Assembly (NCBI GenBank): GCA_903830625.1
Contig: CAIKUK010000014.1
Span: 772-64,771, forward strand
Origin: Candidatus Yanofskybacteria bacterium
GTDB taxonomy: Bacteria > Patescibacteriota > Minisyncoccia > 2-02-FULL-40-12 > GWA2-44-9
DNA length: 64,000 nt
Reading direction: 5' to 3'
The notes beneath the pieces were generated by a model. It had not been told where the DNA came from. It saw only the letters and a list, made by a program, of their open reading frames with translations, and ran no database searches. Made by a program: the position numbers and the translations under genes. Below are positions 1 to 57,732 of this stretch, in pieces. Numbering within the stretch: the first letter of the stretch is position 1; each line of letters begins with the position of its first letter.

Positions 1-232
1 TGTAACGAATAGTGGCCACACGAGTTTATATGATTTTACAAAAAAAATACTGGAACTTGCGAAACTAAAAAATCAAGTTAATATTAAGGGGGTGAAGTTG
101 GCGGATTTTTCTCAAACAGCAAAACGTCCCCAATATACCATCGCAAGAAGCGTAAAATTGTCCTCGATTGGTATTAAAGCACCACGATCATGGCAAGATG
201 CCTTGTCGGCATATTTGGATGAAATAGGATGA
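1..232 (+). CDS. rmlD: dTDP-4-dehydrorhamnose reductase (RmlD), C-terminal fragment; the 5' end lies outside the window
   Basis: Frame 2 is open from nt 2 to TGA at 230-232 (...TSLYDFTKKILELAK...TAKRPQYTIARSVKLSS...APRSWQDALSAYLDEIG*). The pattern matches the RmlD C-terminal tail (TSW.D.A..I.E...; A.RP.NS.L...K; W...L...L.E). The ORF track missed it because there is no start in the window; its stop overlaps the next ATG (ATGA). Confidence 0.55.
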   Translation, partial: VTNSGHTSLYDFTKKILELAKLKNQVNIKGVKLADFSQTAKRPQYTIARSVKLSSIGIKAPRSWQDALSAYLDEIG

Positions 233-1500
233 ATAGAGTAAAATTAATTTTATTATTTTTTTTAATAACCGGCGTGAGCTCGGCGGTTTTTAATATCGGC
301 CATCCGTTTAATCTGAAGGGAGATGACAGTAATTATAATGATTATGCGACCAATCTAGTCTCGGGCAAGGGATATAGTCTTGATGGCAAGGAATTCAGCG
401 CCTTTCGGGAACCCGGTTATCCAATATTTATCGCAATCATTTACAAAGTGGCCGGAATAAACAATTTTTCAGCCGTGAGAGTTGTTCAAATTATTATTCT
501 AGGTTTAATTGGCTTATTTATCTACTTGAGTTTTGAGCTATATCAAAGAAAAAAATGGGGGACAATAGCGGGTATTACAGTTATTCTGATACCTTACTAC
601 GGTTACTATACGGGACAGCTTTTCTCCGAGCTTTTATTCTCTTTATTGTTAGTCGTCTCCTTCTATCTTTGCCTAAGAATATTAATCCGTAATTCTTCGT
701 CTATATGGTATGTTCTTCTCGGTTTAGTATTTGGGTACGCTGTTTTAGTGAGGACGCAACTATTACTATTCCCGATAGTAATCTGTCTATTTGCTATCTT
801 TATCCGTTCGTTCAGTATAAAAAAAATAGTCATACTCCTGGTAACATTTTTAATGGTCGTGATGAGCTGGGGTTCTTATGTATATCATAAAACGGGCCAT
901 TTTTATTTAACAACGTCCTATAGAACAGGCCTTAATTTCTATAACCGAGCTGACCGGGCGGGCTGGTCTTACGGGCAATTAATTTCTTATTATGGTTATT
1001 GGATATCTCGCAGTTCTAGTAATGGAGATATTGGAGATCGTATTAGCAATTATGAAGATAAACTTAAGGCCGGATATTATAATGAAATTGCTTCCGGCAA
1101 TTTACCAAATGAGATTCAGAATCGGAGTCTTAAAACAATATTTATACATTTTGACAAATACATATTTGGTAGTGGCATCGAACTGTTGAAGCTTAATTAT
1201 ATCGACCATATCTATGCGCCATCCGTGGATACGAGATATCTTCGGGTCGGATTTTATATTGTTTTGTATCTATTGTTTTTATACGGCATTATTAACTTTT
1301 TCAGATTCAAAAATACATCTCTGCAAACCATGGTGGTCCTAGCCGGCATATATTTGGTATATAATCAGTTATTGGTGTCTGCGTTTGATGCCATTCCCAG
1401 ATACAACACTCCGTATCTTGTTTTTTTTCTGCTAGTTGGTTTGGCTGGCCTAAGCTTAGTTTGGCCTCTAAATGAGCCAATAATAAAAAAACAAAAATAA
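229..1500 (+). CDS. GT-C fold membrane glycosyltransferase, family 39/83-like (ArnT/PMT_2-like)
   Basis: 423 aa polytopic membrane protein. The N-terminal pattern D..NY.DYA.NL.SGKGYS......F.REPGYP.F is typical of the PMT_2/ArnT family. Confidence 0.55.
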   Translation: MNRVKLILLFFLITGVSSAVFNIGHPFNLKGDDSNYNDYATNLVSGKGYSLDGKEFSAFREPGYPIFIAIIYKVAGINNFSAVRVVQIIILGLIGLFIYLSFELYQRKKWGTIAGITVILIPYYGYYTGQLFSELLFSLLLVVSFYLCLRILIRNSSSIWYVLLGLVFGYAVLVRTQLLLFPIVICLFAIFIRSFSIKKIVILLVTFLMVVMSWGSYVYHKTGHFYLTTSYRTGLNFYNRADRAGWSYGQLISYYGYWISRSSSNGDIGDRISNYEDKLKAGYYNEIASGNLPNEIQNRSLKTIFIHFDKYIFGSGIELLKLNYIDHIYAPSVDTRYLRVGFYIVLYLLFLYGIINFFRFKNTSLQTMVVLAGIYLVYNQLLVSAFDAIPRYNTPYLVFFLLVGLAGLSLVWPLNEPIIKKQK

Positions 1501-2285
1501 TGTCAATCGAAAGAAAAAAATCCATCTGTGTGATATTGGCCTATAACTGCGCTAATGTTTTGGAATCCACGTACAAACGAATTCCAGTCGGATCGGTTGA
1601 TGAAATTATACTTGTTGATGATTCTTCAACGGACAATACTCTTGAGGTAGCCCGGCGTCTCGGTATTCGGTTCTTTACACATGAACACTTGGGCTATGGC
1701 GGGAACGTCAAATACTCTATTAAAAAAGGGGTTGAGCTTGGGGCGGAGTATATTGTTGACCTGCATGGAGATGGCCAATATGACCCTTCGGCTATTCCCG
1801 CGGCACTTGTTAAAGCCAGCGAAGGCTATGACATGGTTCTCGGCTCCCGTTTTACTGATCTCGGGCAGCCCTTGCGAGACAATATGTCTTTTGCGCGCTA
1901 CTTTGCCAACATAGGACTTAGTGTTATAGCCCGTTTGATTTTAGGCGTGCCGTTGTCAGAATTCCATACCGGCTTTCGGATTTATTCAAAACACTTAGCA
2001 GAAACTATATCTTTTAATAATACGTCCAACGATTTTTTATTTAGCTTTGAAATTATCGCATTAGCTCGTTTTAATAATCTAAATATCGGGGAAGTGCCTA
2101 TTCGTTGTGACTATAAAGAAGAACATACATCCATTTCAATTAAAAAGTCAATTGTTTACTCGTTCCAGATGTTGAAAACTCTAGGTCTCTATCTCTTGGC
2201 AAAATCCGGTTACAGAACTAAGCTATTTATGGGTCAAAGATTGACGACCCAATATTTATATGGGGGCGATCAAAAACATATTTAA
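1500..2285 (+). CDS. Family 2 glycosyltransferase (polyprenyl-phosphate sugar synthase-like)
   Basis: 261 aa with an ILVDDSSTDNT DxD-type motif and GT-A fold hallmarks; its ATG overlaps the previous stop (TAATG). Confidence 0.75.
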   Translation: MSIERKKSICVILAYNCANVLESTYKRIPVGSVDEIILVDDSSTDNTLEVARRLGIRFFTHEHLGYGGNVKYSIKKGVELGAEYIVDLHGDGQYDPSAIPAALVKASEGYDMVLGSRFTDLGQPLRDNMSFARYFANIGLSVIARLILGVPLSEFHTGFRIYSKHLAETISFNNTSNDFLFSFEIIALARFNNLNIGEVPIRCDYKEEHTSISIKKSIVYSFQMLKTLGLYLLAKSGYRTKLFMGQRLTTQYLYGGDQKHI

Positions 2286-4095
2286 ATTGGCTAGATTAAA
2301 CGTAAAATTTTTTATTATTGAACATTGGTTCGCGTTGTTGGTCATGGTAGCCGTTGCCGGCATAGGGGGATTGCCACAAATTATAGCTAGAAATGCCCTT
2401 GGTCCAGCTGATCGAGGCATTCCATTTCTTATTAATACCGACGAAGGGTATTATTTAGGTCGGATTCATGAGATTTTAGATGGTCACACGAGCGTTTCAT
2501 CGCCGGAACTTTATGAATATAAAGATTCTATTATTTTAACCCCCGCGATGGGCGAACTGCTTTTTTATATATTACCAATGAAGCTAACTAGTCTTTCATT
2601 GTCAAACATCGTCTTTTTAAGCAGGTTTATTTTACCGGCCCTCCTTTTTTTCTTTGCCTATCTTTTTATTCTTTCTCTTTCGACTCGCTATGATTTTTGG
2701 GCACGGCTATCAGCCATCGTTGGGGCGCTTCTTATCGTGATTGGCTATGATGCCGTCGATTATCGTAATTTTATCTCAAATATTCTACATAGAACGCCAG
2801 ATTTGACTGGTCTTTTGTGGAATAGATTGGTCAATCCTATCACGGGAGGGGTAATGCTATTTGTTTTTCTATGGCTTCTTTCTCTCATCGTGAAGAGGAA
2901 AGGCCGATGGCCGGCTATTATTATTTCCGGGCTTGTTCTTTCAACTATGTCGGGTTATATTTTTTCGTTTGCCCTTGGATTAACTATTCCAGTTTTTGTG
3001 GGTCTCTATTTCGTATGGCGGAAAAATTGGCCGATGGTCTTAAGAGTTTATATTCCGGTGGCGATGGCGCTCGCCGTAAATATTTTTTATTTTGTCAGCG
3101 TTTTTTTGGCAATGAGTGGCGGAGTGCCCTTAAGTGATCCGCGTAAAGCAGGGATGTTTTTTACTCACATGCCATTAATAAACTTAATTTCACTCATTTC
3201 ACTCATCGGCGTTATTTTATGTTTTATTTTGTATTTCAGAAAAGATACTGCTCTTGAGCCAGAAAAACGCTGGTGGTTCTTTTCCCTTGCTGTAATCGTT
3301 GCCTGCGAGCTTGTCTATAATCAGCAAATTATTACAGGCCGGACTGTTTATCCCCAACATTTCGTTCAATATACAACGCCGCTTTGCATGGCCATAGGGG
3401 TAGTATTTTTGCATAATATAATCCGTCCGCGTTTAAAAAATCTGTGGCGCGTGGTCGTAATCTTTATTTTAATTATATCCGTCCTATTTGGTTGGCGGAC
3501 TCTTGGGTCTGTGCAAGCTACTATTCCGAAATATACTGAATTGCAGTCATTTTCGGGGGTCTTTGATTATCTTAATGCTAATGCTTCGAAGGATTGCGTC
3601 GTGTATGTTAGCTCCGATTATAATAATGAAATAAACCGTTTTATCAATGCGTTGACGAGCTGTAATGTTTATCATTCGTTTTATGTGTACAGTGGCGTTC
3701 CCGCTGAACGAATAATGCACAATTTTTTGGTGGATTTACGTTTGCGTGGTATTAAACCAGAAGACTTAGACAAGTATTTGAATGAAAATTCATTGTATGT
3801 GCGGGGATATTTCTTTCGAGATTGGAGAGATATGTTCGGTGAAGAAAAATGGTTGAGAACAATTGGCGACTGGGAAGAGACTAAAATCTGGCTTGCCTCG
3901 GTGGACAAGGATATAGAAAAAAGATATATAGAATATCTCAAAGGAAATCTTTATTCCGAATTAACGCGATATCGACTCGATTATTTTGTGGTTGACACGG
4001 AAAAACAGCCACAGGTAAATGATAAAAACTTTCCGTTTCTTTCTTTGAGAGGTAAGTTTGGCCAGTTTGTAGTATACGCAATAATTAAATCGTAA
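2260..4095 (+). CDS. Large polytopic membrane protein of unknown function (possible GT-C-like glycan-processing protein)
   Basis: 611 aa with more than 10 predicted TM helices in the N-terminal two-thirds and a soluble C-terminal domain; it sits in the glycan locus. Confidence 0.45.
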   Translation: MGAIKNIFKLARLNVKFFIIEHWFALLVMVAVAGIGGLPQIIARNALGPADRGIPFLINTDEGYYLGRIHEILDGHTSVSSPELYEYKDSIILTPAMGELLFYILPMKLTSLSLSNIVFLSRFILPALLFFFAYLFILSLSTRYDFWARLSAIVGALLIVIGYDAVDYRNFISNILHRTPDLTGLLWNRLVNPITGGVMLFVFLWLLSLIVKRKGRWPAIIISGLVLSTMSGYIFSFALGLTIPVFVGLYFVWRKNWPMVLRVYIPVAMALAVNIFYFVSVFLAMSGGVPLSDPRKAGMFFTHMPLINLISLISLIGVILCFILYFRKDTALEPEKRWWFFSLAVIVACELVYNQQIITGRTVYPQHFVQYTTPLCMAIGVVFLHNIIRPRLKNLWRVVVIFILIISVLFGWRTLGSVQATIPKYTELQSFSGVFDYLNANASKDCVVYVSSDYNNEINRFINALTSCNVYHSFYVYSGVPAERIMHNFLVDLRLRGIKPEDLDKYLNENSLYVRGYFFRDWRDMFGEEKWLRTIGDWEETKIWLASVDKDIEKRYIEYLKGNLYSELTRYRLDYFVVDTEKQPQVNDKNFPFLSLRGKFGQFVVYAIIKS

Positions 4096-4100
4096 AAATC

Positions 4101-5240
4101 ATGTATAAATTAACAAATTTTTATATCATATTTATATCTCTTGTCCGTTTTTTGTTTAGGGGTAAGGCTAATAAAAAACCGCAGGGCGTAAAATCGGTTT
4201 TGGTTATGCAGGCAACTCCCAACCTGGGCGATATGGTTTGTATTACGCCGGTCTTTCGGGCGATTAAGCAGAAATATCCAGACAGCAAGATCTATCTGAT
4301 GAGTAAGGGCAAGGGTGCTGAAATAATAAAAGGCAATCCATATATTGATGAATATATGTCAAGCGCAGAATCACCCTTTAAACTTATAAAAAAATTAAGA
4401 GATAAAAAAATAGATTTTGCCGTGGCCACTAATCCGAGTACTTCCGGTCTCGGTGTACTATATTTGTCCGGGATACCTTGCATAAGCTCATTCGTAATTT
4501 CAGGACCACAGAAAATTTATTCAAGGCTGTATGATATTATGATAAAATTGGTTACGCAAATACCTCTTAAGGCCGGAGTTTATATCCCAGCACAATATCT
4601 CAACCTTCTTAAACCGATTGGCATCCAAACAGATAATATACAGTTTGAGTTATTCTTTTCTAAGGAAGCAGATAAGACGGTTATGGATTTTTTGTCGGAT
4701 AATAATGTAAGTCCAAACCATGATTTCATGGTCGCTATTGCGCCGGGTGGTTCAACTGACATACGCTGGTGGGCCGCCGAAAAATATGCGGCGCTTGCAG
4801 ACTATCTTTTTAAAAAATATCAGGCAAAAATATTTTTTATAGGAGCCGGTTCAGACCGGAAACCCATCGAAGATGTGGTAAGTTTTATGGACAAGCAGAC
4901 AAAATATTTCAACCTTCTCAACCAGCCAATAGAGGAATTCAAGGCCTTTATGTCCAGGGTTAATCTAGTTATTGGCAATGACAGTGGCCCGATGACGATA
5001 GCCAAGGCCTTTAACGCGGCCCAGATGGTATTTATAGGTCCTACCGATGAACGCGAGTACCAGCTTCCTAATGGTCCGTTAAATCGTATTATAAAATCAG
5101 AAACCCGGGGCGAGCCAGTAACTAATTCGACAAATTGGATATCCTACGATGAGAAAGAAGCAAAAAGGCAGATGGCGGAAATCACACTTGAAGACGGAAC
5201 AAATGAACTCGATATTCTAATGAAAAATCTTGGCAAGTGA
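4101..5240 (+). CDS. Glycosyltransferase family 9 (ADP-heptose:LPS heptosyltransferase-like)
   Basis: 379 aa with the N-terminal GT9 signature (VLVMQATPNLGDMVCITPVFRAIKQKYPDSKIYLM) and a C-terminal GT-B half ending in GNDSGPM. Confidence 0.65.
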   Translation: MYKLTNFYIIFISLVRFLFRGKANKKPQGVKSVLVMQATPNLGDMVCITPVFRAIKQKYPDSKIYLMSKGKGAEIIKGNPYIDEYMSSAESPFKLIKKLRDKKIDFAVATNPSTSGLGVLYLSGIPCISSFVISGPQKIYSRLYDIMIKLVTQIPLKAGVYIPAQYLNLLKPIGIQTDNIQFELFFSKEADKTVMDFLSDNNVSPNHDFMVAIAPGGSTDIRWWAAEKYAALADYLFKKYQAKIFFIGAGSDRKPIEDVVSFMDKQTKYFNLLNQPIEEFKAFMSRVNLVIGNDSGPMTIAKAFNAAQMVFIGPTDEREYQLPNGPLNRIIKSETRGEPVTNSTNWISYDEKEAKRQMAEITLEDGTNELDILMKNLGK

Positions 5241-5251
5241 TGTGACGATTC

Positions 5252-5293
5252 TTGACTTTTATATGATTTTCTGGTACATTATTTTCTAGGAGG
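5252..5293 (+). promoter_or_regulatory. Sigma70-like promoter (TTGACT-N17-TACATT) plus AGGAGG Shine-Dalgarno for the Nudix gene
   Basis: ttgact at 5252-5257, tacatt at 5275-5280, aggagg at 5288-5293 lying 6 nt before the ATG at 5300. Confidence 0.45.
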
Positions 5294-5299
5294 TGGTTC

Positions 5300-5851
5300 A
5301 TGTCAGATCGTATGTCGCCTGAGCGGGTGAGGTTGCTCGCAGAATTACTCACGGAAGTATGGGGGGTCAACCAAGGTTTTGTGCCTGATCCGGCATATCG
5401 TCCCCTACAGAAGCTGGTATCGTGGGGTGCCGGGGAGGTCCTGATCGTTCGCAATGATGGACAAGAGATTCTTCTTCGACATCGGGCCGATGATTTCATC
5501 GGTTGGCACGTTCCCGGCGGATATATCCGTCCCCAGGAGTCGATTCAGGCGTTCTGTGATCGAACGGCTCTGGAGGACGCCGGCGTTCGCGGGGGCGTGG
5601 TCAATATTCGCCAGATTGCCACATTGAAGTGGCTAGATCACATATTCTCCTGGCCGTTCTGTGCGCTTTTGGTCTGCCAGACCGTTGAGCGTGTACAGGA
5701 GCGTGAAGACCTTCGTTTTTTCTCCGTTGGAGATCTCCCGTTCGCTAACATGATACATCCCAAGCACGCACTCTACCTGGAGACCTTCATCGAGTACCTC
5801 AAACATCCTGAACGCTCGTGCCCCGTTATCGGGGAGACGCTGGCACACTAG
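5300..5851 (+). CDS. Nudix hydrolase (possibly GDP-mannose mannosyl hydrolase-like, given adjacency to gmd)
   Basis: 183 aa with a Nudix-box-like segment GYIRPQESIQAFCDRTALEDAGV. It is visibly GC-richer than the flanking sequence and carries its own promoter, Shine-Dalgarno site and terminator. Confidence 0.6.
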   Translation: MSDRMSPERVRLLAELLTEVWGVNQGFVPDPAYRPLQKLVSWGAGEVLIVRNDGQEILLRHRADDFIGWHVPGGYIRPQESIQAFCDRTALEDAGVRGGVVNIRQIATLKWLDHIFSWPFCALLVCQTVERVQEREDLRFFSVGDLPFANMIHPKHALYLETFIEYLKHPERSCPVIGETLAH

Positions 5852-5872
5852 TTCAGACCCTCAACCGCCATG

Positions 5873-5915
5873 CCCGCCTGAAATTCATGGAATCTCAGGC
5901 GGGTTTTACTTTTTG
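5873..5915 (+). terminator. Rho-independent terminator
   Basis: Stem cccgcctga / tcaggcggg followed by ttttactttttg. Confidence 0.6.
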
Positions 5916-5944
5916 TGACGGGTAGTATATAATTTAAAACCACT

Positions 5945-6346
5945 ATGATTAATCAAAACTCAAAATTTTTAGTTGAGATTTCACCGGCAGAACTTATTGA
6001 TAAAATTTGTATTCTGGAGATTAAGATTGAAAAAATTACTGACCCGGAGAAGAATAGGAATGTAAAACATGAGCTCAAAGTTCTCATGGACGTCTTCAAT
6101 GCCCTCGTTTTTCCTTCTCGGGAACTCAACCAATTGATTAATAGACTGAGAGCTGCTAGCAAGCGCGGATGGGAAATTGAAGATATAAAGAGAGAGTGCG
6201 AACGAGAGAAGGATTTTGGTGATAAATTTATTGAAGCCGCCCGGGGAGCGTTCAAAAATAATGATGAACGAGCAATGATTTGGAAGGAAATCAATATGCT
6301 TTTGAAATCGAATATTGTTCAGGAAAAATCTTATGAAAAATACTAA
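5945..6346 (+). CDS. Hypothetical protein (133 aa, charged, alpha-helical)
   Basis: Intact ORF between the Nudix and gmd genes with a tataat-like box about 15 nt upstream; no family recognised. Confidence 0.45.
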
Positions 6347-7398
6347 AAAGAATCCGAAACAGAAAACAGCGCTTATTACTGGCGTAACTGGGCAAGACGG
6401 TTCATATCTAGCTGAATTTTTAGTTAAGAAAGGATATAAGGTTTATGGGCTCATGCGAAGAAGTAGTACGGAACCACTGTTGAGGATAGGTGAGCTTGTT
6501 TTTTCAAAAAAAAATAAAGCTTTTGACCGGTAATTTAAGAGACCTAAGCACTATCCGACTCGCCCTTGAAGAATCTAAGCCGGATGAAATATATAATCTG
6601 GCTGCTCAGTCAGATGTGGGCATATCTTTTGAGGCACCTGATGAGACCATGGAGATTAATTATTACGGCCTTGGCAGGATAGTCAACGAAGCCATGAGAA
6701 TTAATCCCGGAGTAAGAATATATCAAGCCTCTACGAGCGAGATGTTTGGAAGAACTAAACCGCCCCAGAATGAAGAGTCGCCTTTCCAGCCGGTCAGTCC
6801 CTATGCCGAAGCTAAGCTTAGAGCTCATAATGATTTTGTCGTCGGCTATAGGAATAAATACGGCTTATTTATTTGTTCCGGAATATTATTTAATCACGAG
6901 TCGCCGAGGCGTGGCAAGCATTTTGTAACTAAGAAAATAACCCACTCTCTTTCTAAAATAAAACATGGTCTTCAGGATGTTCTAACATTGGGCAATTTGG
7001 ACGCAAAAAGAGATTGGGGATATGCCGGAGATTATGTAGAAGCGATGTGGCTGATGCTTCAGCAGGATAAACCGGATGATTACGTGATAGCTACCGGCGA
7101 GAGTCACTCAGTGCGTGAATTTGTAGATGCGGCGGCCAAGGCCTTAAAAATGACTATAAAATGGAAGGGCAAGGGCTTGAAAGAGGTTGGAGTAGACGAT
7201 AAGGGAAAAGTGATTGTAGCCGTGAGCGCTAATTATTATAGACCTAATGAAGTCCATTATCTCTGCGGTGATGCCAGTAAGGCTAGGAGAGAATTTGGAT
7301 GGAAGCCGAAGTTATCTTTTGATGAATTGGTGAAACTTATGGTCGAGACGGACGAGAAAGAAGTGCGCTTCAGTAAGGCCTATAAGGAATTTATATAA
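6333..7398 (+). CDS. gmd: GDP-mannose 4,6-dehydratase, interrupted by a +1 frameshift inside an A9 homopolymer (6506-6514)
   Basis: The N-terminus ([33 protein letters not shown]) is in frame 0 and ends at 6533. The remainder ([10 protein letters not shown]...[11 protein letters not shown]...[10 protein letters not shown]...SPYAEAKL...[12 protein letters not shown]) is in frame +1 from 6490. One fewer A would give a continuous SKKIKLL that aligns with E. coli GMD PKFHLHY. Confidence 0.85.
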
Positions 7399-7416
7399 TT
7401 TAGGCAAATAAAAAAT

Positions 7417-8271
7417 TTGAAAAATATTGGTAGAAAAATAAAAAAAGGGCTCTCTCTGCTTATTAACGATCCCAAGCAATTAGTCAGATATATATCATTG
7501 TACATTATGCCTTCTTGGTTACTTAACCATCTGGGGGGACATATAGGAAAGATTGTCTTTGACTTTGATTTTGCCCTGGATTCAAACGTAAAGAAAATGT
7601 ACGCTGGTTTCTATGAGGAAAAAACGGTCAGGTTTTTTAAGCAAATATTGAAACCAGGAGATACGTTTATAGACGTAGGCAGTAATATCGGATACCTATC
7701 TGCTGTCGGTGCTAGTCTTGTTGGGAGCCAGGGACAAGTTTATTGTTTTGAGCCTGTGCCAATTTTTTTTATGCGTCTGAAACAGATGGCATCCAGAAAT
7801 CCTAGGCATAGAATTGTGGTAAATCAATGTGCTCTGGGAGATAAAGAGGGTTTTGCCAAAATCTCGATTACTAATATTAAAAATATTGGTTGGAATACAA
7901 TGGTTCCCGGTTTTATGAGTAAGGAGACAACGAGAGAGTCGGTTAAGGTGCCCATGCGAAGGTTGGATGCCTATATTAAAAAGGGCGGCATAAAGAATAT
8001 TTCCTTAATAAAAATTGACGTGGAAGGTTTTGAATTCCCGGTCTTGAGGGGACTTAGCAGTTTTTTTGAAAATAAAAACAATCGACCAGTGATTGTATGC
8101 GAGATTATCCCCTTTGCGTATCATTTGCTGGGCTATTCATTGTCTCAACTCAGTGAATATATGGAAGGTTATGGCTATAAGGCTTATGATATGGGCAATA
8201 CAAATAATGAGATAGATATTCTTGCCTTGAGGAATAACAATCATACCGATGTGGCATTTATTTGCCTATAA
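7417..8271 (+). CDS. FkbM family SAM-dependent methyltransferase
   Basis: Motifs FIDVGSNIGY, VYCFEPVP and IKIDVEGFEFPVLRGL. Confidence 0.8.
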   Translation: MKNIGRKIKKGLSLLINDPKQLVRYISLYIMPSWLLNHLGGHIGKIVFDFDFALDSNVKKMYAGFYEEKTVRFFKQILKPGDTFIDVGSNIGYLSAVGASLVGSQGQVYCFEPVPIFFMRLKQMASRNPRHRIVVNQCALGDKEGFAKISITNIKNIGWNTMVPGFMSKETTRESVKVPMRRLDAYIKKGGIKNISLIKIDVEGFEFPVLRGLSSFFENKNNRPVIVCEIIPFAYHLLGYSLSQLSEYMEGYGYKAYDMGNTNNEIDILALRNNNHTDVAFICL

Positions 8272-9529
8272 TTTCAAATTTAGGGCAGGGGACAATGAAT
8301 TTTCCTCCGTGTTGTAAGAATAATGCTTCTCTCTCTTGGAACTCATTTATGAAATGCCAAGGCAGAATTAGCAGGTAATCTGGCTTTTGCTTCCGCATCT
8401 CCTCTTCGGAATATATTGGTATATTAGTGCCGGCAGTTTTGAGCCCAAACTTAGTCGGAGATCTCTCGGCGATACCGTCAATTAATGTATAATCAAGACC
8501 GTACCACTGAAGGAGAGTGTTGCCTTTAGTAGAGGCGCCATAGGCCCAAATACTCTTGCCCTTAGCTTTTTCTTTCTTAATAAAATCTACAGTTTGTTTT
8601 TTAAGGGCCGAGATGGATTTAAAAAACTTAACATATATAGCCGACTTATCTAGGCCTAAGGTTTTCTCATGTTCCAGTAACGACTCTACTCTAAATTCAG
8701 CAACATCGCGATAGGGAGCACTGGCAAATTCAACCGGATTGGCTTTCTTTTTGCGGGCATAGACACGGAATGAGCCACCGTTAATGTCGTTTAATTGGCA
8801 ATCAACGATATTGAATCCATGCTGGTCTAGGAGGTACTTAAAAGATGTGAGACTATAGTATTCAAGATGTTCGTGTAAAATATTGTCAAAGGCGAGCTGT
8901 TTTAACATTAAGGGCATATAACTCATCTGGATAATCCAAACGCCATTATCGTCAAGAATTTGATATACATCTTTAACAAATTTGTGAGGATCTTCCAGGT
9001 CGTAGAACATGGCAATAGACGTTACGACCCGGGCTTTCTTTTTACCGTACTTACTTTTTTTGTAGGCAGTAGCAGTAAAGTAATCCTCAATGATAAGGTT
9101 GGCGTGTTTTCTGGAATGAGTGGCGTAGTCGTTTTTTGCCGGATCAAAACCAATCCGAATCAAATCTTTATCCATGAAACTGAACATCGTGCCGTCATTA
9201 CAGCCAATATCCACAAAAACATCTCCGGACTTCATCTTGGCCAATAATCTCGTAGAGATGGCAATTTGCTCAAGTTCTTGGCGCATGGTATTGCTGATGC
9301 CGGCACGGTACCAGTATTGACGGTACATATCGTCCAATGAAGCGGTATGAGCAAGCTGGACTAACCCTGATTTTGGGGCCAAACACAATTTTAGTTCTAC
9401 TTTTTCTTGCTTTGGAACTGAGTCCTTTGCGATAAAATCGGAAAGGTATAACTCACCCAAAGAGAACAAACTAACCAGTTTTTCACCGGATATTCGACAA
9501 GTTTTTCGTTCGATCACTCTAGGTTTCAT
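8258..9529 (-). CDS. Class I SAM-dependent methyltransferase, sugar C-methyltransferase-like (TylCIII/NovU-like architecture)
   Basis: About 420 aa with a central VFVDIGCNDGTMFSFMD SAM-binding motif flanked by N- and C-terminal extension domains. The ORF-track start at 9568 is probably upstream of the true MKPRV start. Confidence 0.55.
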   Translation of the reverse strand: MKPRVIERKTCRISGEKLVSLFSLGELYLSDFIAKDSVPKQEKVELKLCLAPKSGLVQLAHTASLDDMYRQYWYRAGISNTMRQELEQIAISTRLLAKMKSGDVFVDIGCNDGTMFSFMDKDLIRIGFDPAKNDYATHSRKHANLIIEDYFTATAYKKSKYGKKKARVVTSIAMFYDLEDPHKFVKDVYQILDDNGVWIIQMSYMPLMLKQLAFDNILHEHLEYYSLTSFKYLLDQHGFNIVDCQLNDINGGSFRVYARKKKANPVEFASAPYRDVAEFRVESLLEHEKTLGLDKSAIYVKFFKSISALKKQTVDFIKKEKAKGKSIWAYGASTKGNTLLQWYGLDYTLIDGIAERSPTKFGLKTAGTNIPIYSEEEMRKQKPDYLLILPWHFINEFQEREALFLQHGGKFIVPCPKFEIIGK

Positions 9530-9592
9530 AAGCCTCCATATTATTATACAAAAAAGGAAAATTAGCAATACCTAAAAACCTTGGCGGTACAG

Positions 9593-10603
9593 CTAAGACT
9601 TATGTAAAAATTTATCCCTAAACTTCTTTAGTCGGCGGTGGATTATTGGAAAATGGTATTTGATAAACCACCGTAACCTCTGGCCGAAAAATTGATTAAT
9701 ACCGGTGTAGTATTTATAAGCGAATCCTGCAGCACCCTTATTCGCCTTTATTCCCCGAGGGTGTACTAGGGGAAAGTTTATTGACTGCAATGGTAATTTG
9801 GCGCGGATATCATTTGGGTCTTGGGCATTATGATAAGCATCCCGGTCAAATCCGATATTAGATATCAAATTTTTTGATGGAATTACAGACAAGCCATTAT
9901 TTAACCAGCGGGCTAGATACCATTGTGCATCCCAACCGTCAATTTGTTGCGCATAGTAACGGTCAAAGAGATTCGTATAATGATTCGCCACAGCTGGATC
10001 ATCAATAACGGATGCCAGAAAATTATTCTTTTTTAATTCGGGCCAATTTTTTACATCCAGATCGCACAGACGCCAGGCTCTCCTCCATGTTGCCCATCCA
10101 ATAATCGGACTGAAGTTGGAGAAATAATAACTGTCGGAGCAGTGAAATTTTTTGTCTATAGCCGAAAAATTATATCCGCTTATCTGCATAATTTGCGGGT
10201 TATTACGGAATCTTTCCAAAAGTTCCTGGCAGAAAGGAAAGAAACTCTGATTGGGCAGGCAGTCGTCTTCCAATATGATAGCTTCTTCTGTGTTTTGGAA
10301 AAGCCAATCTAAGCCAGTGGCAAATCTTTGTTTACAGCCTAGATTGTGTTCGGCGTAGTTCTTGAAAACTTGGCATGGCCAGTCGACTTTCTCAACTATA
10401 TTTCTAACTTCCTGGCATTTTGATGCTTCTTCGTTATTTCTTGGTCCATCTGCAATAATAAAAAATTTTTCGGGCTCGGCTTTCCTTATTTCCTCAAAAA
10501 CCAGCCTCGTTTTTTCAGGGCGATTAAAAACCACAATGACTACTGGTGTGGTTAGTTTTTTATTCTCCGAGTAATTCATGGGGAAGGTATTCTTTTTTGG
10601 CAA
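9593..10603 (-). CDS. GT-A fold glycosyltransferase, GnT-I (GT13)-like
   Basis: PVVIVVFNRPEKT...FFIIADGPRNNEE...AIILEDDCLP parallels the GnT-I catalytic core. Confidence 0.5.
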   Translation of the reverse strand: MPKKNTFPMNYSENKKLTTPVVIVVFNRPEKTRLVFEEIRKAEPEKFFIIADGPRNNEEASKCQEVRNIVEKVDWPCQVFKNYAEHNLGCKQRFATGLDWLFQNTEEAIILEDDCLPNQSFFPFCQELLERFRNNPQIMQISGYNFSAIDKKFHCSDSYYFSNFSPIIGWATWRRAWRLCDLDVKNWPELKKNNFLASVIDDPAVANHYTNLFDRYYAQQIDGWDAQWYLARWLNNGLSVIPSKNLISNIGFDRDAYHNAQDPNDIRAKLPLQSINFPLVHPRGIKANKGAAGFAYKYYTGINQFFGQRLRWFIKYHFPIIHRRLKKFRDKFLHKS

Positions 10604-11519
10604 AAAGGATTAGATTTTCGTCTTTCCAATAATCTTTTTGGAGTAATAGAAGATATTTATCGCCTATCAGCTCAACTTTCCAGGGTTGAAGGCCTAGGCC
10701 GGTTAGTAAATTGAATATTTCTTCCGGGCTTGACCCGGCCATCTCAAGTAGTTTTTTACTAATCTCAATAAAAATTTTAATTTGCGGGTTGGTTCTAATA
10801 AGTTTCACAGCCCCCCTTAAAACTTCGGTCTCATAACCCTCAACGTCAATCTTCAGTAAATCTACTTTTTCTCCCATAAGTTCATTATCAAGTTTTATAA
10901 TCGGCACAGTCTCAATCTTCAGGGGGTGGTTTTCAATTGGTTGTGATATTCTGGAACCGGCGCTGCAGGTATCGTCGGCTACATAAATTTTGATTTCTCC
11001 GGTAGTGTTACCACAAGCAACTTTTTCGGGTTTAATATTTTTTAACTCACTGACGTTCTCAAGTAATCTTTGATAGATTGATAAGACTGGTTCAAAGGCA
11101 AATATCTTACCAGCGGATCCTATCCGTGATGCCGCCAGAACGGAATAGTAACCGATATTTGCTCCTACGTCGACCACGCAATCTCCGGGATTCGTGAGTT
11201 TCAAGAATATGCGAGTGGGGTGCTTTTCATAATAACCGTTCCACCATATGATGTTGTCAATATGGTCATCAAGATGAAGGGCAATAGGAAGGCCGGAATA
11301 TATTTTTATGCGTTCAATGTATTGGTGACCACTTATGAAACGATTCAAATCGATGCCCGAGCGATATAAAATTTTCTTGGCTATTTGAACAAGTTTAAAA
11401 CGGCGGTGGCAACGACCTAATAGGTTGAGCCATACCGGTAAGATGTTGTTGTCCGAGATATTAGAAGATAATTCAGGCAAACAATTAAAATTAAAGTTTT
11501 TACGTAAGCAATATAGCAA
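10560..11519 (-). CDS. FkbM family methyltransferase
   Basis: VVDVGANIGYYSVLAA, FAFEPV and LKIDVEGYETEVLRGA; the 3' end overlaps the downstream gene by about 44 nt. Confidence 0.8.
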   Translation of the reverse strand: MLYCLRKNFNFNCLPELSSNISDNNILPVWLNLLGRCHRRFKLVQIAKKILYRSGIDLNRFISGHQYIERIKIYSGLPIALHLDDHIDNIIWWNGYYEKHPTRIFLKLTNPGDCVVDVGANIGYYSVLAASRIGSAGKIFAFEPVLSIYQRLLENVSELKNIKPEKVACGNTTGEIKIYVADDTCSAGSRISQPIENHPLKIETVPIIKLDNELMGEKVDLLKIDVEGYETEVLRGAVKLIRTNPQIKIFIEISKKLLEMAGSSPEEIFNLLTGLGLQPWKVELIGDKYLLLLQKDYWKDENLILFAKKEYLPHELLGE

Positions 11520-11592
11520 TAATATCCAGGTATGGGAAGCCTTTTCGGGACGTATATTTCCCCCGAAGATTACTATATGATATACGTTATAT

Positions 11593-12585
11593 ATGAGAAT
11601 TAAAGTAAAAACATTACTATATCAATACGCCAGAAACCTTAGATCTGTTGTTCAAAAGCCCCTGCTGAGTATTATTGTCGTATTGATAAAGAAAAGAATT
11701 ATTGATCCCGAAGCAGTATATTCCGTATTTTCCAAATACGGCTTCTATTTTCTTAAAAAGAGCCACTATTTACCTATCCCGGATGAAGGTGACCTCACTT
11801 ATGCCTATAGTAAGCAATCCGAACTGGTTGGTCTAGACATGAATGAGAGTTATGCGCTGGACTTGTTAGATAATGTAATTTTGAAATATAAAAGTGAATT
11901 TAATGCTTTTCCTGTCAATAAAACTGATGACGATTCAGTCTATTATTTATTGAACGGAAATTATATGGCCATTGACGGTAATGTCTACTATTCTCTTATA
12001 AGGCATTTAAAACCAAATAAGATTATTGAAATTGGTTCCGGTTTTTCTACTAGGTTAGCCTGCAACGCCATATCTAAAAATATACAAGAATCAAACAGTA
12101 AAACACAGTTAATATGCATCGAACCTCATCCGCGCGAGATGCTAAAAGATAATTTACCCAAATTCTTAGAATTAAAAGTAAGCAAAGTTCAAGATGTCGG
12201 ACTAGATATGTTTGAGTCTTTAAGGGCGGGGGATATCTTATTTATCGATTCATCGCATGCGCTTCGGACCGGAGGCGATGTCTGGTGGGAATATTGCGAG
12301 ATTTTGCCGCGGCTTGCTTCCGGTGTTTATGTCCATATTCACGATATCCATTTACCAAAGCCATATCCAAGGCACTACTTTAACCAGCATACTTACTGGA
12401 ACGAACAGTATTTATTGCAGGCATTTTTGACCTTTAATCCTAAATTTGAAGTAATTTGGCCCGGCAATTATTTAATGACTAAATATCCCGAGAAGATTCG
12501 CAAGGCATTTCTACCGGAGTATGACCTGATGCTATCAAAGTATTCCTTTGCCGAACCGGCAAGTTTTTGGATGAGGGTGCAGTGA
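11593..12585 (+). CDS. Putative class I SAM-dependent methyltransferase (Methyltransf_24/CmcI-like)
   Basis: IIEIGSGFSTR...LFIDSSHALRTGGDVWWEY pattern; the assignment is tentative. Confidence 0.4.
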   Translation: MRIKVKTLLYQYARNLRSVVQKPLLSIIVVLIKKRIIDPEAVYSVFSKYGFYFLKKSHYLPIPDEGDLTYAYSKQSELVGLDMNESYALDLLDNVILKYKSEFNAFPVNKTDDDSVYYLLNGNYMAIDGNVYYSLIRHLKPNKIIEIGSGFSTRLACNAISKNIQESNSKTQLICIEPHPREMLKDNLPKFLELKVSKVQDVGLDMFESLRAGDILFIDSSHALRTGGDVWWEYCEILPRLASGVYVHIHDIHLPKPYPRHYFNQHTYWNEQYLLQAFLTFNPKFEVIWPGNYLMTKYPEKIRKAFLPEYDLMLSKYSFAEPASFWMRVQ

Positions 12586-12593
12586 AGTATTAT

Positions 12594-13502
12594 TTAGAAA
12601 GCTTTAAATACAACATTCTCTCCGATATCTCCCAGTTTTCCACTATAAATAGTGAGGTCGCCATTTATAGTAATTTGATATGGTCTGTATCCTAATTCTG
12701 CTAAAAAATCGACCGCCTTTAAATGGTTTGTATTATCATATCCTTTCCCCCAAATCTCCATGGCGATAATGGGTTTGCATTTCTTAAGTGTTGTTACTGC
12801 TCCCATAAGTACGTTAAATTCAGAACCTTCAACGTCGATTTTTATCAGAGTGGGGCAGATTTTTTTGCTATCACAATAATCATCTAGTGTTATCGCGGGC
12901 ACCGTTATCATTTTAAATTTCTCTTCATTTAGGACGGCAACATTCTTAAAAAAGTCTTTATTAATAGTACTTATTGATCTCCTGCTTTGAAAAAAATTAA
13001 GCTTGCCGGATTCATTTGAAACTGCACACTCGTTCAGGCATATACCGGGTAAGTCCGCATTTTTTTTCAAGATCCTGAAATGTTTTGGTGTCGGCTCGAA
13101 AGCGTGGACTTGTCCCTTGCCCGCTAATATTTTGTGTGCAAGAAGTGTATAGAAGCCATGATGAGAACCAATATCAAAAAACATATCTCCTGGCTGGAGT
13201 TGTTTAATAATAAATTTCGTGAGACATATTTCCGGGACTGAATTCAAGAAACCACCCAACCATAGATCTTGCTCGTAACTATGGATATGAATCGGGTAAC
13301 CAAAAAATGTTTTTGTCTTAACCAAAAAATATAAGCGATGCCCAGGAAACAAAACATCATATTTTCTTATAAAAACCTTGATTGGGTTCCTGGCGAGCCT
13401 AAGGAGCCTTTCCCTCCAATTTCCTTTATATAATTTTCCGTAAAACCGAATAGCTTTTTCTAGGGATTCAGATAAATTATTTGCTAATTCGATTTTATCC
13501 AT
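12594..13502 (-). CDS. FkbM family methyltransferase
   Basis: FFDIGSHHGFYTLLAH, HAFEPTP and IKIDVEGSEFNVLMGA. Confidence 0.8.
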   Translation of the reverse strand: MDKIELANNLSESLEKAIRFYGKLYKGNWRERLLRLARNPIKVFIRKYDVLFPGHRLYFLVKTKTFFGYPIHIHSYEQDLWLGGFLNSVPEICLTKFIIKQLQPGDMFFDIGSHHGFYTLLAHKILAGKGQVHAFEPTPKHFRILKKNADLPGICLNECAVSNESGKLNFFQSRRSISTINKDFFKNVAVLNEEKFKMITVPAITLDDYCDSKKICPTLIKIDVEGSEFNVLMGAVTTLKKCKPIIAMEIWGKGYDNTNHLKAVDFLAELGYRPYQITINGDLTIYSGKLGDIGENVVFKAF

Positions 13503-13640
13503 ATTAAAATAAAAATTATCATATTCTAAGATTAAACGCTAGGGACTAAGGGCATCAGACAAATTGCTTTTACTAAAAAATTATGTTATGGTTTGTCTCA
13601 ACCATTCTGTTCTTTGAAAACTCAAAAAAGGAGCGGAAAA

Positions 13641-15044
13641 GTGAGAATACTGCAAATATTCGTGAAGAATACCGTCTTTGAAAAGCCCATGGCTTTTTTG
13701 CCGCTGGGCCTGGCCTACATTCGTTCTGCCTTGTGCGAGCGTGGGTATGATGTCGATTTCATTGATATGTCCGAATATGACGAGGACAGTCAAGGGAAAC
13801 ACATCGACAGATACCCCGATGTAAGCTACATTCCACTGGATTACGATCTGTACTTGGTTTCCGGAACTTCGCCCCAAGCTAGCGAGATAAGGAAAGTCGG
13901 GAGATATCTAAAAGAGAAAGGCAAGCCGGCGATTGCTGGCGGTCCGCATGTCACTAACTATGCCGGACCAGAAACACCCCGAGGCTCTCTTATGGTTATC
14001 GATGACTCTTTGCCAGTTGACAAAGAGCTCGTCACCAACTACCCCGTCATGGTTAAGTATGAGGGCGAAATCGCCATCTTCGAGGCTGTCGAAAGAATTG
14101 AAGAAGGGATGGGGGCATTAAGACGGCATGGCCGCGGAATCGTTCTTAGGACGCCACTGATAAGCGACTTGGGCAGCATACCAATTCCCGATCGTAGAGA
14201 TGCACACAAGTACGAATGGCATCTCGAGGATAAAAACGGGAAAAAATGCTTGGGCACCAACATGTTCACTTCACGTGGCTGTCCAAAGAGGTGCGCTTTT
14301 TGTGATAGCGGAAATCTCTGGACTCGAGGAGTCAGGTATACTCCCATCGATCGAGTAAGAGAAGAATTTGCGCAGATAAAGGGTTTGGGTTTTGAGGCGA
14401 TACAATTCTATGACGACATTTTCCTTCTTAATCGTAGCCGTATGATTGAGATGTGCAAATCCTTGAAAGAGATGGGATTCGCTTGGAAGTGTTACATAAG
14501 AGTTGATATCGTATCCCACCATCTTTACGGCAAGGAATTTCTGCAGATGATGTACAACGCCGGTCTTATTGAGGTTTTGGTTGGGGTGGAAAGTGGCTCC
14601 CAGCAAATCCTCGATAATATCTATAAAGATACCACCGTTGAACAAAACAGCATTGTCCGTCAGTGGTGCCGGGAAGTGGGTATTAGGTTCAAGGCGGCCA
14701 TCGTTCTCGGACTTCCAGGCGAAACCACGGAAACTTTAGAGGCAACAAGACGTTGGATATTGGAACAACGGCCGGATAAGTGTGCTGTCGCCATATTTAT
14801 TCCGTTCAGCGGCACTCCAATCGTTGATCAGAAGATAAGGAGACGCTACGGGATAGATGATATGCACGATTTTGACATCAAGATAGAGCTTGAGCCTGGT
14901 GAGGCAGCTGACGACCATTTCAACTACGGATCCAGGACTAAGCTTCAGTCGGTAGTTTCAACATCGTCTTTGACCGCCCAGCAGATTACCGATTTCTATC
15001 TTGAATTTTCGGCCGAACTCGATGCTCTGGGCATAACCTACTAG
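13641..15044 (+). CDS. B12-binding domain radical SAM protein (class B radical SAM, methyltransferase-like)
   Basis: CPKRCAFC (CxxxCxxC) cluster; the N-terminal FLPLGLAYI...YDVDFIDMS B12-binding-like domain; a GTG start at 13641 preceded by aaggag. It is GC-richer than its neighbours, and a hairpin terminator follows. Confidence 0.75.
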   Translation: MRILQIFVKNTVFEKPMAFLPLGLAYIRSALCERGYDVDFIDMSEYDEDSQGKHIDRYPDVSYIPLDYDLYLVSGTSPQASEIRKVGRYLKEKGKPAIAGGPHVTNYAGPETPRGSLMVIDDSLPVDKELVTNYPVMVKYEGEIAIFEAVERIEEGMGALRRHGRGIVLRTPLISDLGSIPIPDRRDAHKYEWHLEDKNGKKCLGTNMFTSRGCPKRCAFCDSGNLWTRGVRYTPIDRVREEFAQIKGLGFEAIQFYDDIFLLNRSRMIEMCKSLKEMGFAWKCYIRVDIVSHHLYGKEFLQMMYNAGLIEVLVGVESGSQQILDNIYKDTTVEQNSIVRQWCREVGIRFKAAIVLGLPGETTETLEATRRWILEQRPDKCAVAIFIPFSGTPIVDQKIRRRYGIDDMHDFDIKIELEPGEAADDHFNYGSRTKLQSVVSTSSLTAQQITDFYLEFSAELDALGITY

Positions 15045-15054
15045 GGTAAGTTTC

Positions 15055-15090
15055 GGGCCTCCTCGACGGAGGCCTTTTCTTTTTGTTTGA
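15055..15090 (+). terminator. Rho-independent terminator
   Basis: ggcctcc tcgac ggaggcc followed by ttttctttttg. Confidence 0.6.
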
Positions 15091-15135
15091 AAAATATGCT
15101 ATCGTGATATATCCTATTAATAATTTAAATAACAT

Positions 15136-16173: not shown

Positions 16174-16184
16174 ATTGTTTTGAA

Positions 16185-19183: not shown

Positions 19184-19276
19184 AAAATTTAAGGTTATAT
19201 TCAACTCTTAAACTACCATGTTTTAGCACATCTGACAAGATAATTAATTGAAGCCTGGAGTAAATAATGATACCTT

Positions 19277-22900: not shown

Positions 22901-22903
22901 TAA

Positions 22904-23044
22904 CTAAAAACCGGTCGCCTCTCGGAGAAGTTTCTTGGCCGTGCTTTGTTCGGAGAAGGTTCCGATCGGCCGGGTGTAAGCCCGTTGCCGATAATTGGAA
23001 TCTCTGTAGCCGGCCTGAGAATCTCTGTGGCGACCGGTTTTTAG
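22904..23044. repeat. Large-loop hairpin element (family copy A): 9-bp GC stem ccggtcgcc/ggcgaccgg with A-run and T-run flanks enclosing a conserved interior
   Basis: The interior shares tcggagaagtttct, ccgtgcttt, gccgg and gaatctctgtggc with copy B at 38279-38354. It lies between convergent genes. Confidence 0.6.
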
Positions 23045-23056
23045 TTCGTCTAATAT

Positions 23057-41280: not shown

Positions 41281-41282
41281 TC

Positions 41283-41515: not shown

Positions 41516-41545
41516 TTGACATTTAGTTATAAGATATGGTATAAT
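41516..41545 (+). promoter_or_regulatory. Consensus sigma70 promoter TTGACA-N18-TATAAT
   Basis: ttgaca at 41516-41521 and tataat at 41540-41545; aaggagg Shine-Dalgarno at 41558-41564; ATG at 41572. Confidence 0.55.
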
Positions 41546-41571
41546 TAAAGTATTCATTAAGGAGGCAGAAC

Positions 41572-41868: not shown

Positions 41869-41890
41869 TTGATTCACTCACCGTCCGCCG

Positions 41891-43330: not shown

Positions 43331-43345
43331 CTTTATTTTATTTTC

Positions 43346-57729: not shown

Positions 57730-57732
57730 CTT

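Follow-up and report, generated by a model that had tools for sequence, protein, structure and literature searches.

The stretch of DNA considered here, hereafter the window, is 64 kb long (positions 772 to 64,771 of contig CAIKUK010000014.1, Candidatus Yanofskybacteria assembly GCA_903830625.1) and has a GC content of 0.433. Its aspartyl-tRNA synthetase (AspRS) is 86% identical to that of Candidatus Yanofskybacteria RIFCSPHIGHO2_01_FULL_41_21, and the remaining relatives are all Parcubacteria/Patescibacteria; the window is chromosomal DNA of an ultra-small Parcubacteria bacterium (Candidatus Yanofskybacteria-like) of the candidate phyla radiation (CPR). The left 27 kb are an AT-rich glycan-biosynthesis island that encodes glycosyltransferases, many methyltransferases, and epimerases, and the right 37 kb hold housekeeping genes (SecA, SecDF, a DUF87 ATPase, AspRS, D-Ala-D-Ala carboxypeptidase, MraY, FtsW, S20, UvrB, RuvA, and Lon). 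Six open reading frames (ORFs) on the forward strand had been flagged in a first-pass annotation as GC-rich stand-alone genes. Two lie in the glycan island, namely a Nudix gene (5300-5851) and a putative B12-binding radical S-adenosylmethionine (rSAM) gene (13641-15044). The other four, in the housekeeping half, encode a Zn-ribbon protein (41572-41868) and proteins of 166, 65, and 226 amino acids (aa; 44150-44650, 53341-53538, and 62623-63303, respectively). They are set apart from the other genes above all by their Shine-Dalgarno (SD) sequences. An assembly chimera was ruled out, as independent assemblies (L001, L003, and L005) have identical junctions at three of the flagged genes. The close relatives compared were the loci L007, L087, L187, L097, L098, L099, L100, and L102.

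For GC content, the 166-aa, Nudix, Zn-ribbon, 226-aa, and 65-aa ORFs occupy ranks 1-5 among the 53 genes of the window. The references are 0.396±0.028 for glycan-locus genes and 0.452±0.039 for core genes (core maximum 0.499). The Nudix gene (0.553) stands at z 5.5 relative to the glycan-locus genes, and the 166-aa ORF (0.561, with 0.707 at third codon positions, GC3) and the Zn-ribbon ORF (0.552) stand at z 2.8 and 2.6 relative to the core genes. The 226-aa ORF (0.508) and the 65-aa ORF (0.505), both at z 1.4, are slightly over the core maximum. The rSAM gene (0.477) ranks 12th overall and falls inside the core range, such that the earlier description of all flagged ORFs as GC-richer than both the glycan locus and the housekeeping genes is borne out for five of them and, for rSAM, against its glycan neighbors only (z 2.9). 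AT-rich variable genes occur as well. A 112-aa membrane ORF (48266-48604, GC 0.307, without SD) is missing from L007 and L187, and L007 has a two-gene AT-rich insertion (13908-14865, GC 0.29-0.32) that is not in the window.

All six flagged ORFs have an SD that matches AGGAGG at five or more of the six positions, compared with two of the 47 other genes (Fisher p=1.2e-6). When the five GC-richest genes are picked by GC alone, the counts are 5/5 and 3/48 (p=2e-5). Terminators made of a hairpin plus a T-run with a folding energy (dG) of -15 kcal/mol or below follow four of the six candidates (-15.8 to -24.2 kcal/mol) and three of the 47 others (p=0.0016); after the 226-aa gene comes a 7-bp GC hairpin whose T-run is delayed, and no convincing terminator follows the 65-aa ORF. 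The Zn-ribbon, 166-aa, and Nudix genes have near-consensus promoters with an extended -10; those of the other three are only moderate. Accordingly, the textbook signals that had been ascribed to every flagged gene hold throughout for the SD, but for only three promoters and four strong terminators. Promoter-like and terminator-like matches as such are not enriched over shuffled sequences, and therefore the weight of the evidence lies on position and on the SD contrast.

The resident genes present a different picture. The extended -10 of the candidate promoters is the form typical of this host, and in many resident operon-first genes such a motif (TGnTAnnAT) ends 6-9 nucleotides (nt) before the start codon; examples are the genes at 27777, 33251, 36229, 38388, 44723, 48641, 56000, 59137, and 63411. 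Genes inside operons have A-rich, SD-free upstream regions, and the other operon-first monocistronic genes of the window also have no SD. In a positional profile pooled from the window and seven close-relative loci, -10-like hexamers lie 6-11 nt before the ATG in 24 of 100 non-SD operon-first genes, which is the peak of the profile, whereas in SD genes (n=17) they lie 9-50 nt upstream and never closer than 9 nt. Many resident operon-first genes thus look leaderless. Of the wordings offered by the first-pass annotation, "specially regulated" fits better, with the flagged genes apparently expressed from SD-led, leadered mRNAs in a genome largely without SDs.

The compositional contrast has two components, namely protein composition and codon choice. 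At four-fold degenerate sites, GC is 0.443 in the glycan island (1-19200) and about 0.60 in the housekeeping part (27700-64000), and the real compositional outlier of the window is the AT-rich island. At the same sites, five candidates have 0.52-0.67 and the 65-aa ORF has 0.78 (27 sites only), with the core at 0.595±0.078. The difference is found in two-fold codons, of which 0.51-0.70 end in G or C in five candidates, compared with 0.371±0.067 in the core. By codon class, the values for candidates and core are 0.54 and 0.36 for NNC/(NNY) and 0.53 and 0.28 for NNG/(NNR). This dialect is shared by the genes found in the corresponding intergenic slots of the relatives (NNC 0.55 and NNG 0.63, compared with 0.33 and 0.31 in their core genes). 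The core genes themselves are oddly split, with GC of 0.60 at four-fold sites and yet only 0.37 of two-fold codons ending in G or C. In addition, the candidate proteins have more Arg, Glu, Val, Pro, and Cys (the last enriched 2.8-fold) and less Lys, Asn, and Ile; GARP residues (Gly, Ala, Arg, and Pro) amount to 0.269 compared with 0.222 in the core, and FYMINK residues (Phe, Tyr, Met, Ile, Asn, and Lys) to 0.255 compared with 0.319. GC-biased gene conversion was considered an unlikely cause, as the excess is gene-specific within the glycan locus and absent at four-fold sites.

The association between SD and GC was also examined in 13 other loci (relatives and homologue-bearing contigs), with automatic ORF calls, ATG starts, and greedy exclusion of overlaps. 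Genes with an SD exceed the GC median of their locus by 0.059 (n=24), compared with -0.006 for the rest (n=160; Mann-Whitney U test, p=1.4e-7), and they are also shorter. In each locus that has an SD gene, mean GC is higher in the SD genes. Hexamers of matching composition that served as controls (TCCTCC and others) are rare and have no GC effect. Conversely, an SD precedes 11 of 16 genes with a GC excess of at least 0.08 and 21 of 222 others (p=1.3e-7). SD-led genes are a small subset, about 13% of ORFs. One locus, L089, is a dense mosaic in which almost all GC-rich small ORFs (0.48-0.56) have an AGGAGG-type SD and most are then followed by a GC hairpin, whereas most of the interspersed AT-rich genes (0.33-0.38) have neither. 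These results bear on the possibility that there is no common cause, i.e., that unrelated genes differ in GC through their proteins and have the signals of any isolated monocistronic gene. The functions are indeed unrelated, the codon-level excess of the Zn-ribbon, 226-aa, and 65-aa ORFs does not surpass z 1.2 after allowing for amino-acid composition, and the promoter and terminator matches do not rise above shuffles. However, the recurrence of the SD-GC association in independent loci but not for control motifs, the lack of SDs in other operon-first monocistronic genes of the window, and a two-fold-codon dialect common to five of the six candidates and the relatives' slot genes make this explanation very improbable.

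The Nudix unit (5252-5911) starts with the promoter TTGACT-17-TGgTACATT (5252-5280) and the SD AGGAGG (5288-5293); the 183-aa coding sequence is followed by a hairpin (5872-5903) and a T-run. Its protein matches PF00293 with 31.7 bits (gathering cut-off 21.1). Compared with GX5EX7REUXEEXGU, its Nudix box (G74-YIRPQ-E-SIQAFCD-R-T-A-L-E-D-A-G-V) has Thr in place of Glu after the Arg, and ED in place of EE. The best NCBIfam match, to GDP-mannose mannosyl hydrolase, is weak (E 0.009; 15.7 bits, cut-off 146). The family is tiny (seven clusters in 5.8 billion proteins), and all members examined are located inside a GT9-Nudix-DUF6165-epimerase module, usually together with an MT14/23 methyltransferase gene and once with two B12-rSAM genes. 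Amino-acid identities between the window and L179 are 73% for Nudix, 77% for GT9, 72% for DUF6165, and 70% for the epimerase; the corresponding values for L177 are 58, 56, 65, and 74%. Given this fixed arrangement and divergence in step with the neighbors, the Nudix gene is a co-inherited member of the module rather than a separate acquisition. It is nevertheless kept as what looks like its own transcription unit, with promoter, AGGAGG, and terminator, after which comes the conserved TTTACTTTTT -35 region of the DUF6165 gene. The SD is kept in three of four Nudix loci; the exception is L178, in which the gene overlaps that for GT9, lacks an SD, and has GC at the host level.

The rSAM unit (13629-15085) has the SD AGGAGC (13629-13634), a GTG start at 13641, and a terminator with a T-run (15055-15075) after the 467-aa coding sequence. 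The protein contains CPKRCAFC at residue 214 and scores 55.7 for Radical_SAM (cut-off 29.5) and 26.8 for B12-binding, which is under the cut-off of 32.1. Among NCBIfam families, class-B methyltransferases and HpnJ come closest, and every score is far under its cut-off. Both the Nudix and the putative B12-rSAM enzyme are parts of the glycan-biosynthesis island.

In the housekeeping half, the Zn-ribbon unit (41516-41926) has TTGACA (41516-41521), an 18-nt spacer, TGgTATAAT (-10 at 41540-41545), and AGGAGG (41560-41565), and the coding sequence for 98 aa is followed by a hairpin (41880-41916) and a T-run. The protein combines an N-terminal CxxC...CxxC with a conserved domain of about 65 aa (YPFPVFGTQGGGLVRE...GD.MP.EW.I.PAN), for which the pattern is YxFPVFGTQGGGLVRE...GD.MP.EW.I.PAN. 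This domain represents a large unnamed family (225 clusters, no Pfam match) that stands alone or as a C-terminal fusion. The slot of the Zn-ribbon gene, upstream of an HD-domain gene, holds a 256-aa membrane protein gene in L007 and a 189-aa ORF in L087. Between the HD-domain gene and PurN there is a tRNA-Lys(UUU) gene (43258-43331), the sole Rfam/ARAGORN match in the window, and a tRNA gene is found at this position also in L007, L087, and L187.

The 166-aa unit (44072-44695) lies between PurN and AspRS and consists of TTGTTT (44072-44077), a 17-nt spacer, TGgTATAAT (44095-44100), the SD AAGGATGGTGG (44136-44146), the coding sequence, and a hairpin (44663-44689) followed by a T-run. A confident AlphaFold2 model of the protein (predicted local distance difference test score, pLDDT, 94.5) has a three-layer alpha/beta fold, for which the best match in a viral structure library is a DUF218/YdcF protein (TM score 0.74), with generic matches in the PDB. 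The predicted fold may be DUF218/YdcF-like, although no Pfam or NCBIfam profile, including that of DUF218/YdcF, matches the sequence even at E <= 1. The gene occupies the same slot in L187 (88% aa identity) and L087 (73%), and in L007 the slot holds a remote homologue (19% identity; hhalign E=2e-4). The SD is kept across orthologues with 45-88% identity. A 56-aa stand-alone gene (MPKGKHLRGVG...) that adjoins the 166-aa gene in L087 (3385-3555) and L187 (792-962), but not in the window, is another small presence/absence cassette.

The 65-aa ORF (53300-53538, coding sequence 53341-53538) is doubtful, with the SD AGGCGG and a weak promoter, and no homologue was found among the loci compared (no database search was run). 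Its slot, between RuvA and a FemAB-like gene, is an empty 88 nt in L098 and holds an unrelated GC-rich 87-aa ORF in L007. The 226-aa unit (62560-63371) has a moderate promoter (TTGCTA-17-TATTGT), the SD AGGAGT (62611-62616), and the hairpin CCGCGGG...CCCGCGG (63332-63358). Its protein has an N-terminal membrane anchor and is otherwise an ORFan, with itself as the sole match among 5.8 billion proteins; it shows no homology to the L007 slot protein. The Lon/permease block of about 1.09 kb that contains this gene (62317-63408, including a structured element described below) corresponds to a 190-nt spacer in L098, to a different stand-alone gene of about 180 aa in L097, and, in L099 and L100, to an MgtC-like gene together with a small Cys-rich ORF.

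For the Zn-ribbon, 226-aa, and 65-aa ORFs, as well as for the AT-rich ORF at 48266, none of the relatives spanning the position has a homologue. The remaining housekeeping-half genes have homologues with 40-91% identity in at least one covering relative, with partial distributions for PurN (missing from L087) and the ORF at 56863 (missing from L097 and L098). The slot genes inspected in the relatives mostly have an SD and most have terminators; the 189-aa ORF of L087 has no SD. Taken together, four of the six flagged genes (Zn-ribbon, 226-aa, 65-aa, and 166-aa) are located in strain-variable intergenic slots. The suggestion that the genes were individually acquired is therefore upheld in part. 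All six are predicted to be separate expression units and four are in variable slots, three of them missing from the covering relatives, but orthologues of the 166-aa gene lie at the same locus in L187 and L087, the Nudix gene is bound to its module, and a recent foreign origin is unsupported.

Such an origin would mean recent horizontal acquisition from a GC-richer, SD-using donor (a bacterium, plasmid, or phage), with composition and signals not yet ameliorated. Several patterns are in line with this scenario. Slots are empty or otherwise filled in close relatives, the 226-aa protein is an ORFan, and the L178 Nudix gene looks like a "domesticated" end state. The 166-aa family keeps a GC of 0.48-0.56 in hosts of GC 0.36 to 0.52 and is located in unrelated genomic contexts in more distant Patescibacteria. 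Members of the Zn-ribbon domain family are found on six IMG/VR contigs (18-341 kb), the viral context of which was not confirmed by PHROG scans of their neighbors. However, none of the 166-aa, 226-aa, and Zn-ribbon proteins has a tblastn match in INPHARED (50,697 phage genomes), and the 166-aa family is absent from IMG/VR. The small ORFs of the window and L007 match nothing in PHROGs, NCBIfam, and Pfam, with no phage family match better than E=5e-4. Contrary to the expectation of best matches outside the host lineage, the 54 homologues of the 166-aa protein come from Patescibacteria wherever a source is named. Between the window and L187, DNA identity over the entire 166-aa unit (promoter and terminator included) is 79%, the same as for the flanking core genes, and the Nudix gene co-diverges with its module. 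The promoters have the extended -10 of the host and four-fold-site GC matches the core.

A further argument against recent acquisition comes from divergence. In both families with orthologue pairs (Nudix and 166-aa; the epimerase and HD gene rows were left out of this comparison), ratios of nonsynonymous to synonymous divergence (dN/dS) of 0.06-0.09 and third-position identities of 0.39-0.52 point to real proteins under purifying selection. Synonymous divergence (dS) is saturated and of the same order as in the flanking genes. For Nudix between the window and L179, dS is 1.9 and GC3 is 0.60 in both, with neighbors at 0.37-0.45; for the 166-aa gene between the window and L087, dS is 3.0 and GC3 is 0.71 and 0.66, with neighbors at 0.46-0.55. 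Because the GC3 contrast is unchanged at saturated dS, by which point it should have decayed, the GC excess is not the fading signature of a recent transfer. Recent acquisition is thus an unlikely explanation, and GC-richness does not serve as a mark of recent foreign origin here. The excess is instead a maintained property of the class, made up of protein composition and codon dialect. The dialect could be maintained by selection linked to expression mode or to the stability of the mRNA, or by ongoing gene exchange among Patescibacteria.

A further possibility is that these are native, highly expressed genes, with signals and G/C-ending two-fold codons resulting from selection for expression or stable mRNA and with no mobility involved. 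The one ribosomal-protein gene available, S20, shows the same shift together with its three orthologues (NNG 40/89 = 0.45, compared with 0.28-0.31 in the core, p=0.0015; NNC 21/44), the contrast is stable across a long divergence, and the signals are near-consensus. On the other hand, S20 has no SD and an ordinary GC of 0.466, the "optimal" codons are judged from this one reference gene family only, and four of the six genes are missing from close relatives, with one being an ORFan, which is unusual for highly expressed native genes. High expression without mobility is therefore somewhat less plausible still than recent acquisition.

The reading favored here, to which a probability of about 0.5 is assigned, is that the flagged ORFs belong to an SD-led minority class of short, monocistronic, moron-like units with maintained GC, which recurs in relatives and is embedded in a largely SD-less or leaderless genome. 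Resident genes mostly lack an SD and are arranged in operons without strong terminators, and many of those at the start of an operon look leaderless. A flagged unit would be transcribed from a sigma-70-type promoter of its own, with an AGGAGG-type SD in a real 5' leader and, in most cases, a GC-rich hairpin as terminator; it thus appears to bear the signals needed for expression independent of context. The promoter would give a leadered mRNA, the SD would recruit 30S subunits in a cell that initiates most messages otherwise, and the terminator would insulate the unit and probably stabilize its mRNA. Such a gene may work wherever it lands, as a phage moron does, but in a chromosome. The units are functionally unrelated, and several would be accessory genes that come, go, or give way to others in fixed slots between genes; outside the glycan island, the members would be the putatively DUF218/YdcF-like protein, the Zn-ribbon protein with its unnamed domain, the membrane-anchored ORFan, and the doubtful 65-aa ORF.

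Several points weigh against this reading. The promoters, leaders, and leaderless starts are predictions from the DNA sequence. About half of the 16S genes of Parcubacteria are reported to lack the anti-SD motif (PMC9297842), and the 3' end of the host 16S was not found in the window or in any close-relative locus. The candidates were partly picked by eye for these very signals; the replication loci address that, with ORF calling that is crude and limited to ATG starts. The class is heterogeneous, with the 226-aa and 65-aa ORFs only 1.4 standard deviations over the core mean and the GC excess of the Zn-ribbon gene almost wholly due to amino-acid composition, and the ORF at 53341 may not be a gene. 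The Nudix gene, and probably the rSAM gene, are not mobile on their own. No recombinase, transposase, target duplication, flanking repeats, or shared junction was found at the slots; integrases were not searched for systematically, and most ORFs of the window were left unannotated.

Phage morons, as described by Hendrix and colleagues, are single genes with their own promoter, a factor-independent terminator, and a composition unlike that of the flanks. They are inserted between conserved genes, variably present among relatives, and have cargo functions unrelated to their neighbors. The units of the window resemble them in having a promoter and an intrinsic terminator, which is clear for the Nudix, Zn-ribbon, and 166-aa units, with weaker promoters for rSAM and 226-aa and no terminator for the 65-aa ORF. 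The empty Lon/permease and RuvA/FemAB-like sites in L098 are a further similarity, which does not extend to Nudix. Unlike morons, the units are located among chromosomal housekeeping genes, syntenic in several MAGs, rather than in a prophage, are GC-richer rather than AT-richer with four-fold-site composition equal to that of the host, and include two genes (Nudix and rSAM) fixed in a glycan module.

Among other known systems, the single-gene gain and loss of an accessory, often hypothetical fraction is similar to the genomic islets of Patescibacteria, and individually transferred genes in this group are mostly exchanged from Patescibacteria to Patescibacteria (PMC12455944). The keyword-matched passages of that study do not deal with expression architecture (SD-led versus SD-less or leaderless), codon dialect, or conserved slots. 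Mixed leaderless and SD-led initiation is known from mycobacteria (PMC4633059) and from gene-finder classes (PMC6028130). The window would resemble such genomes in having many SD-less starts at or near the mRNA 5' end and a canonical SD in a subset; unlike in those genomes, this subset is small, short, GC-richer, different in its two-fold codons, and enriched in strain-variable genes. A coupling of SD-led initiation with short, GC-rich, variable genes was not found in the literature searched. Integron cassettes are also single-gene units with a 3' structured element, but they lack promoters, have attC sites whose core sequences are conserved, and are arrayed beside intI, whereas the units here have their own promoters and 3' hairpins plus T-runs of unshared sequence and are scattered over 58 kb. 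The PurN-AspRS slot, in which L007 has a remote homologue between flanks with 70-86% identity, is reminiscent of xenologous gene displacement in situ; this is true of one slot only, and the other slots contain unrelated genes or nothing. Lastly, small Nudix genes of the Gmm/WcaH type are likewise found in glycan loci beside epimerase and glycosyltransferase genes and have a degenerate Nudix box, but the window family of only seven has a weak NCBIfam match.

Small hypothetical genes abound in CPR/Patescibacteria genomes, and little is known about the rules of gene expression in them. The signature of SD, leader, terminator, and G/C-ending two-fold codons appears to set a strain-variable, self-expressing class apart from a differently initiating core. 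If this were true genome-wide, it would help to recognize accessory genes in annotation and in pangenome work and would bear on the reported loss of the anti-SD in part of the Parcubacteria. GC deviation alone would also be a poor marker of recent transfer in these genomes, because the alien part here is the AT-rich island, and the GC-rich genes have the four-fold-site composition of the core.

Two of the flagged units have a rod-like structured element upstream, on the same strand. Rod 1 (41281-41503, fold z -8.8) lies after the stop codon of the DUF87/TrwB-like ATPase gene and upstream of the Zn-ribbon unit, and rod 2 (62317-62528, z -8.6) is found between the Lon stop codon and the 226-aa unit. 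A third copy (L099, 14316-14533, z -6.2) follows the stop codon of an amino-acid permease gene. The rods are about 215 nt long, start 0-1 nt past the upstream stop codon, and have conserved, unpaired ends (5' TCGCTC(G) and 3' (C)CTCGCT, with a T-run afterwards in two of the three copies); in rod 1, the ends are TCGCTCG...CTCGCT, followed by a T-run. A 21-bp closing helix is in register with these ends and has compensatory pairs at 16 of its 21 positions; the helix arms were chosen for complementarity, and independent evidence is limited to their register with respect to the conserved ends. Rods 1 and 3 have a common hairpin loop, UCCAGCG. At the same sites, rod 1 is missing in L087 and rod 2 in L097, L098, and L100. 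Nothing credible was found in Rfam at E <= 10, with only tRNA-Lys recovered at gathering thresholds, and a scan of the loci analyzed here, with a relaxed pattern and stem, gave the same three copies only. By their shared ends and predicted fold, the rods make up a putative, undescribed family of structured elements. A more far-reaching interpretation, which seems improbable, is that of two translational "castes", in which a leaderless or SD-less core with A/T-ending codons would coexist with circulating SD-dependent units, with G/C-ending two-fold codons, that plug into slots after stop codons, with entry perhaps aided by the rods or by the 145-nt hairpins described below. If it were true, the SD-led caste might be switchable as a block, for example through the availability of ribosomes or anti-SDs.

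Other hairpins were also observed. A 145-nt element, with copies about 90% identical, is found in the window at 47058-47196 and 56760-56900 (z -7.2 and -8.6) and in L187 at 4053-4197. Its left arm starts straight after a TAA stop codon (ATTAA, then TCCCGCACATAAC), and its right arm ends with ...GTGCGGG directly before the ATG of MraY or of a 288-aa membrane ORF. In L007, MraY is preceded by a 44-nt spacer instead of the element, and L097 and L098 lack the block 56760-57730, with both element and ORF. This looks like a small mobile or regulatory element. Just upstream, the ORF that ends at 56759, with the conserved C-terminus ...PNRPWLSY*, and the ORF at 56000-56461, which is homologous to those of relatives, are in different frames, which suggests a frameshift, or two genes, around 56178-56461. 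A 149-nt hairpin (22900-23048, z -10.5) is located between two convergent genes, and a counterpart of its core (22947-23010), with 86% identity, lies in a different context in L099 (17933-17993). Finally, where the window has rod 2 and the 226-aa gene, L098 has a near-perfect hairpin of 147 nt (12372-12518, z -13.3), which separates a TGGTATAAT promoter from the permease start codon.

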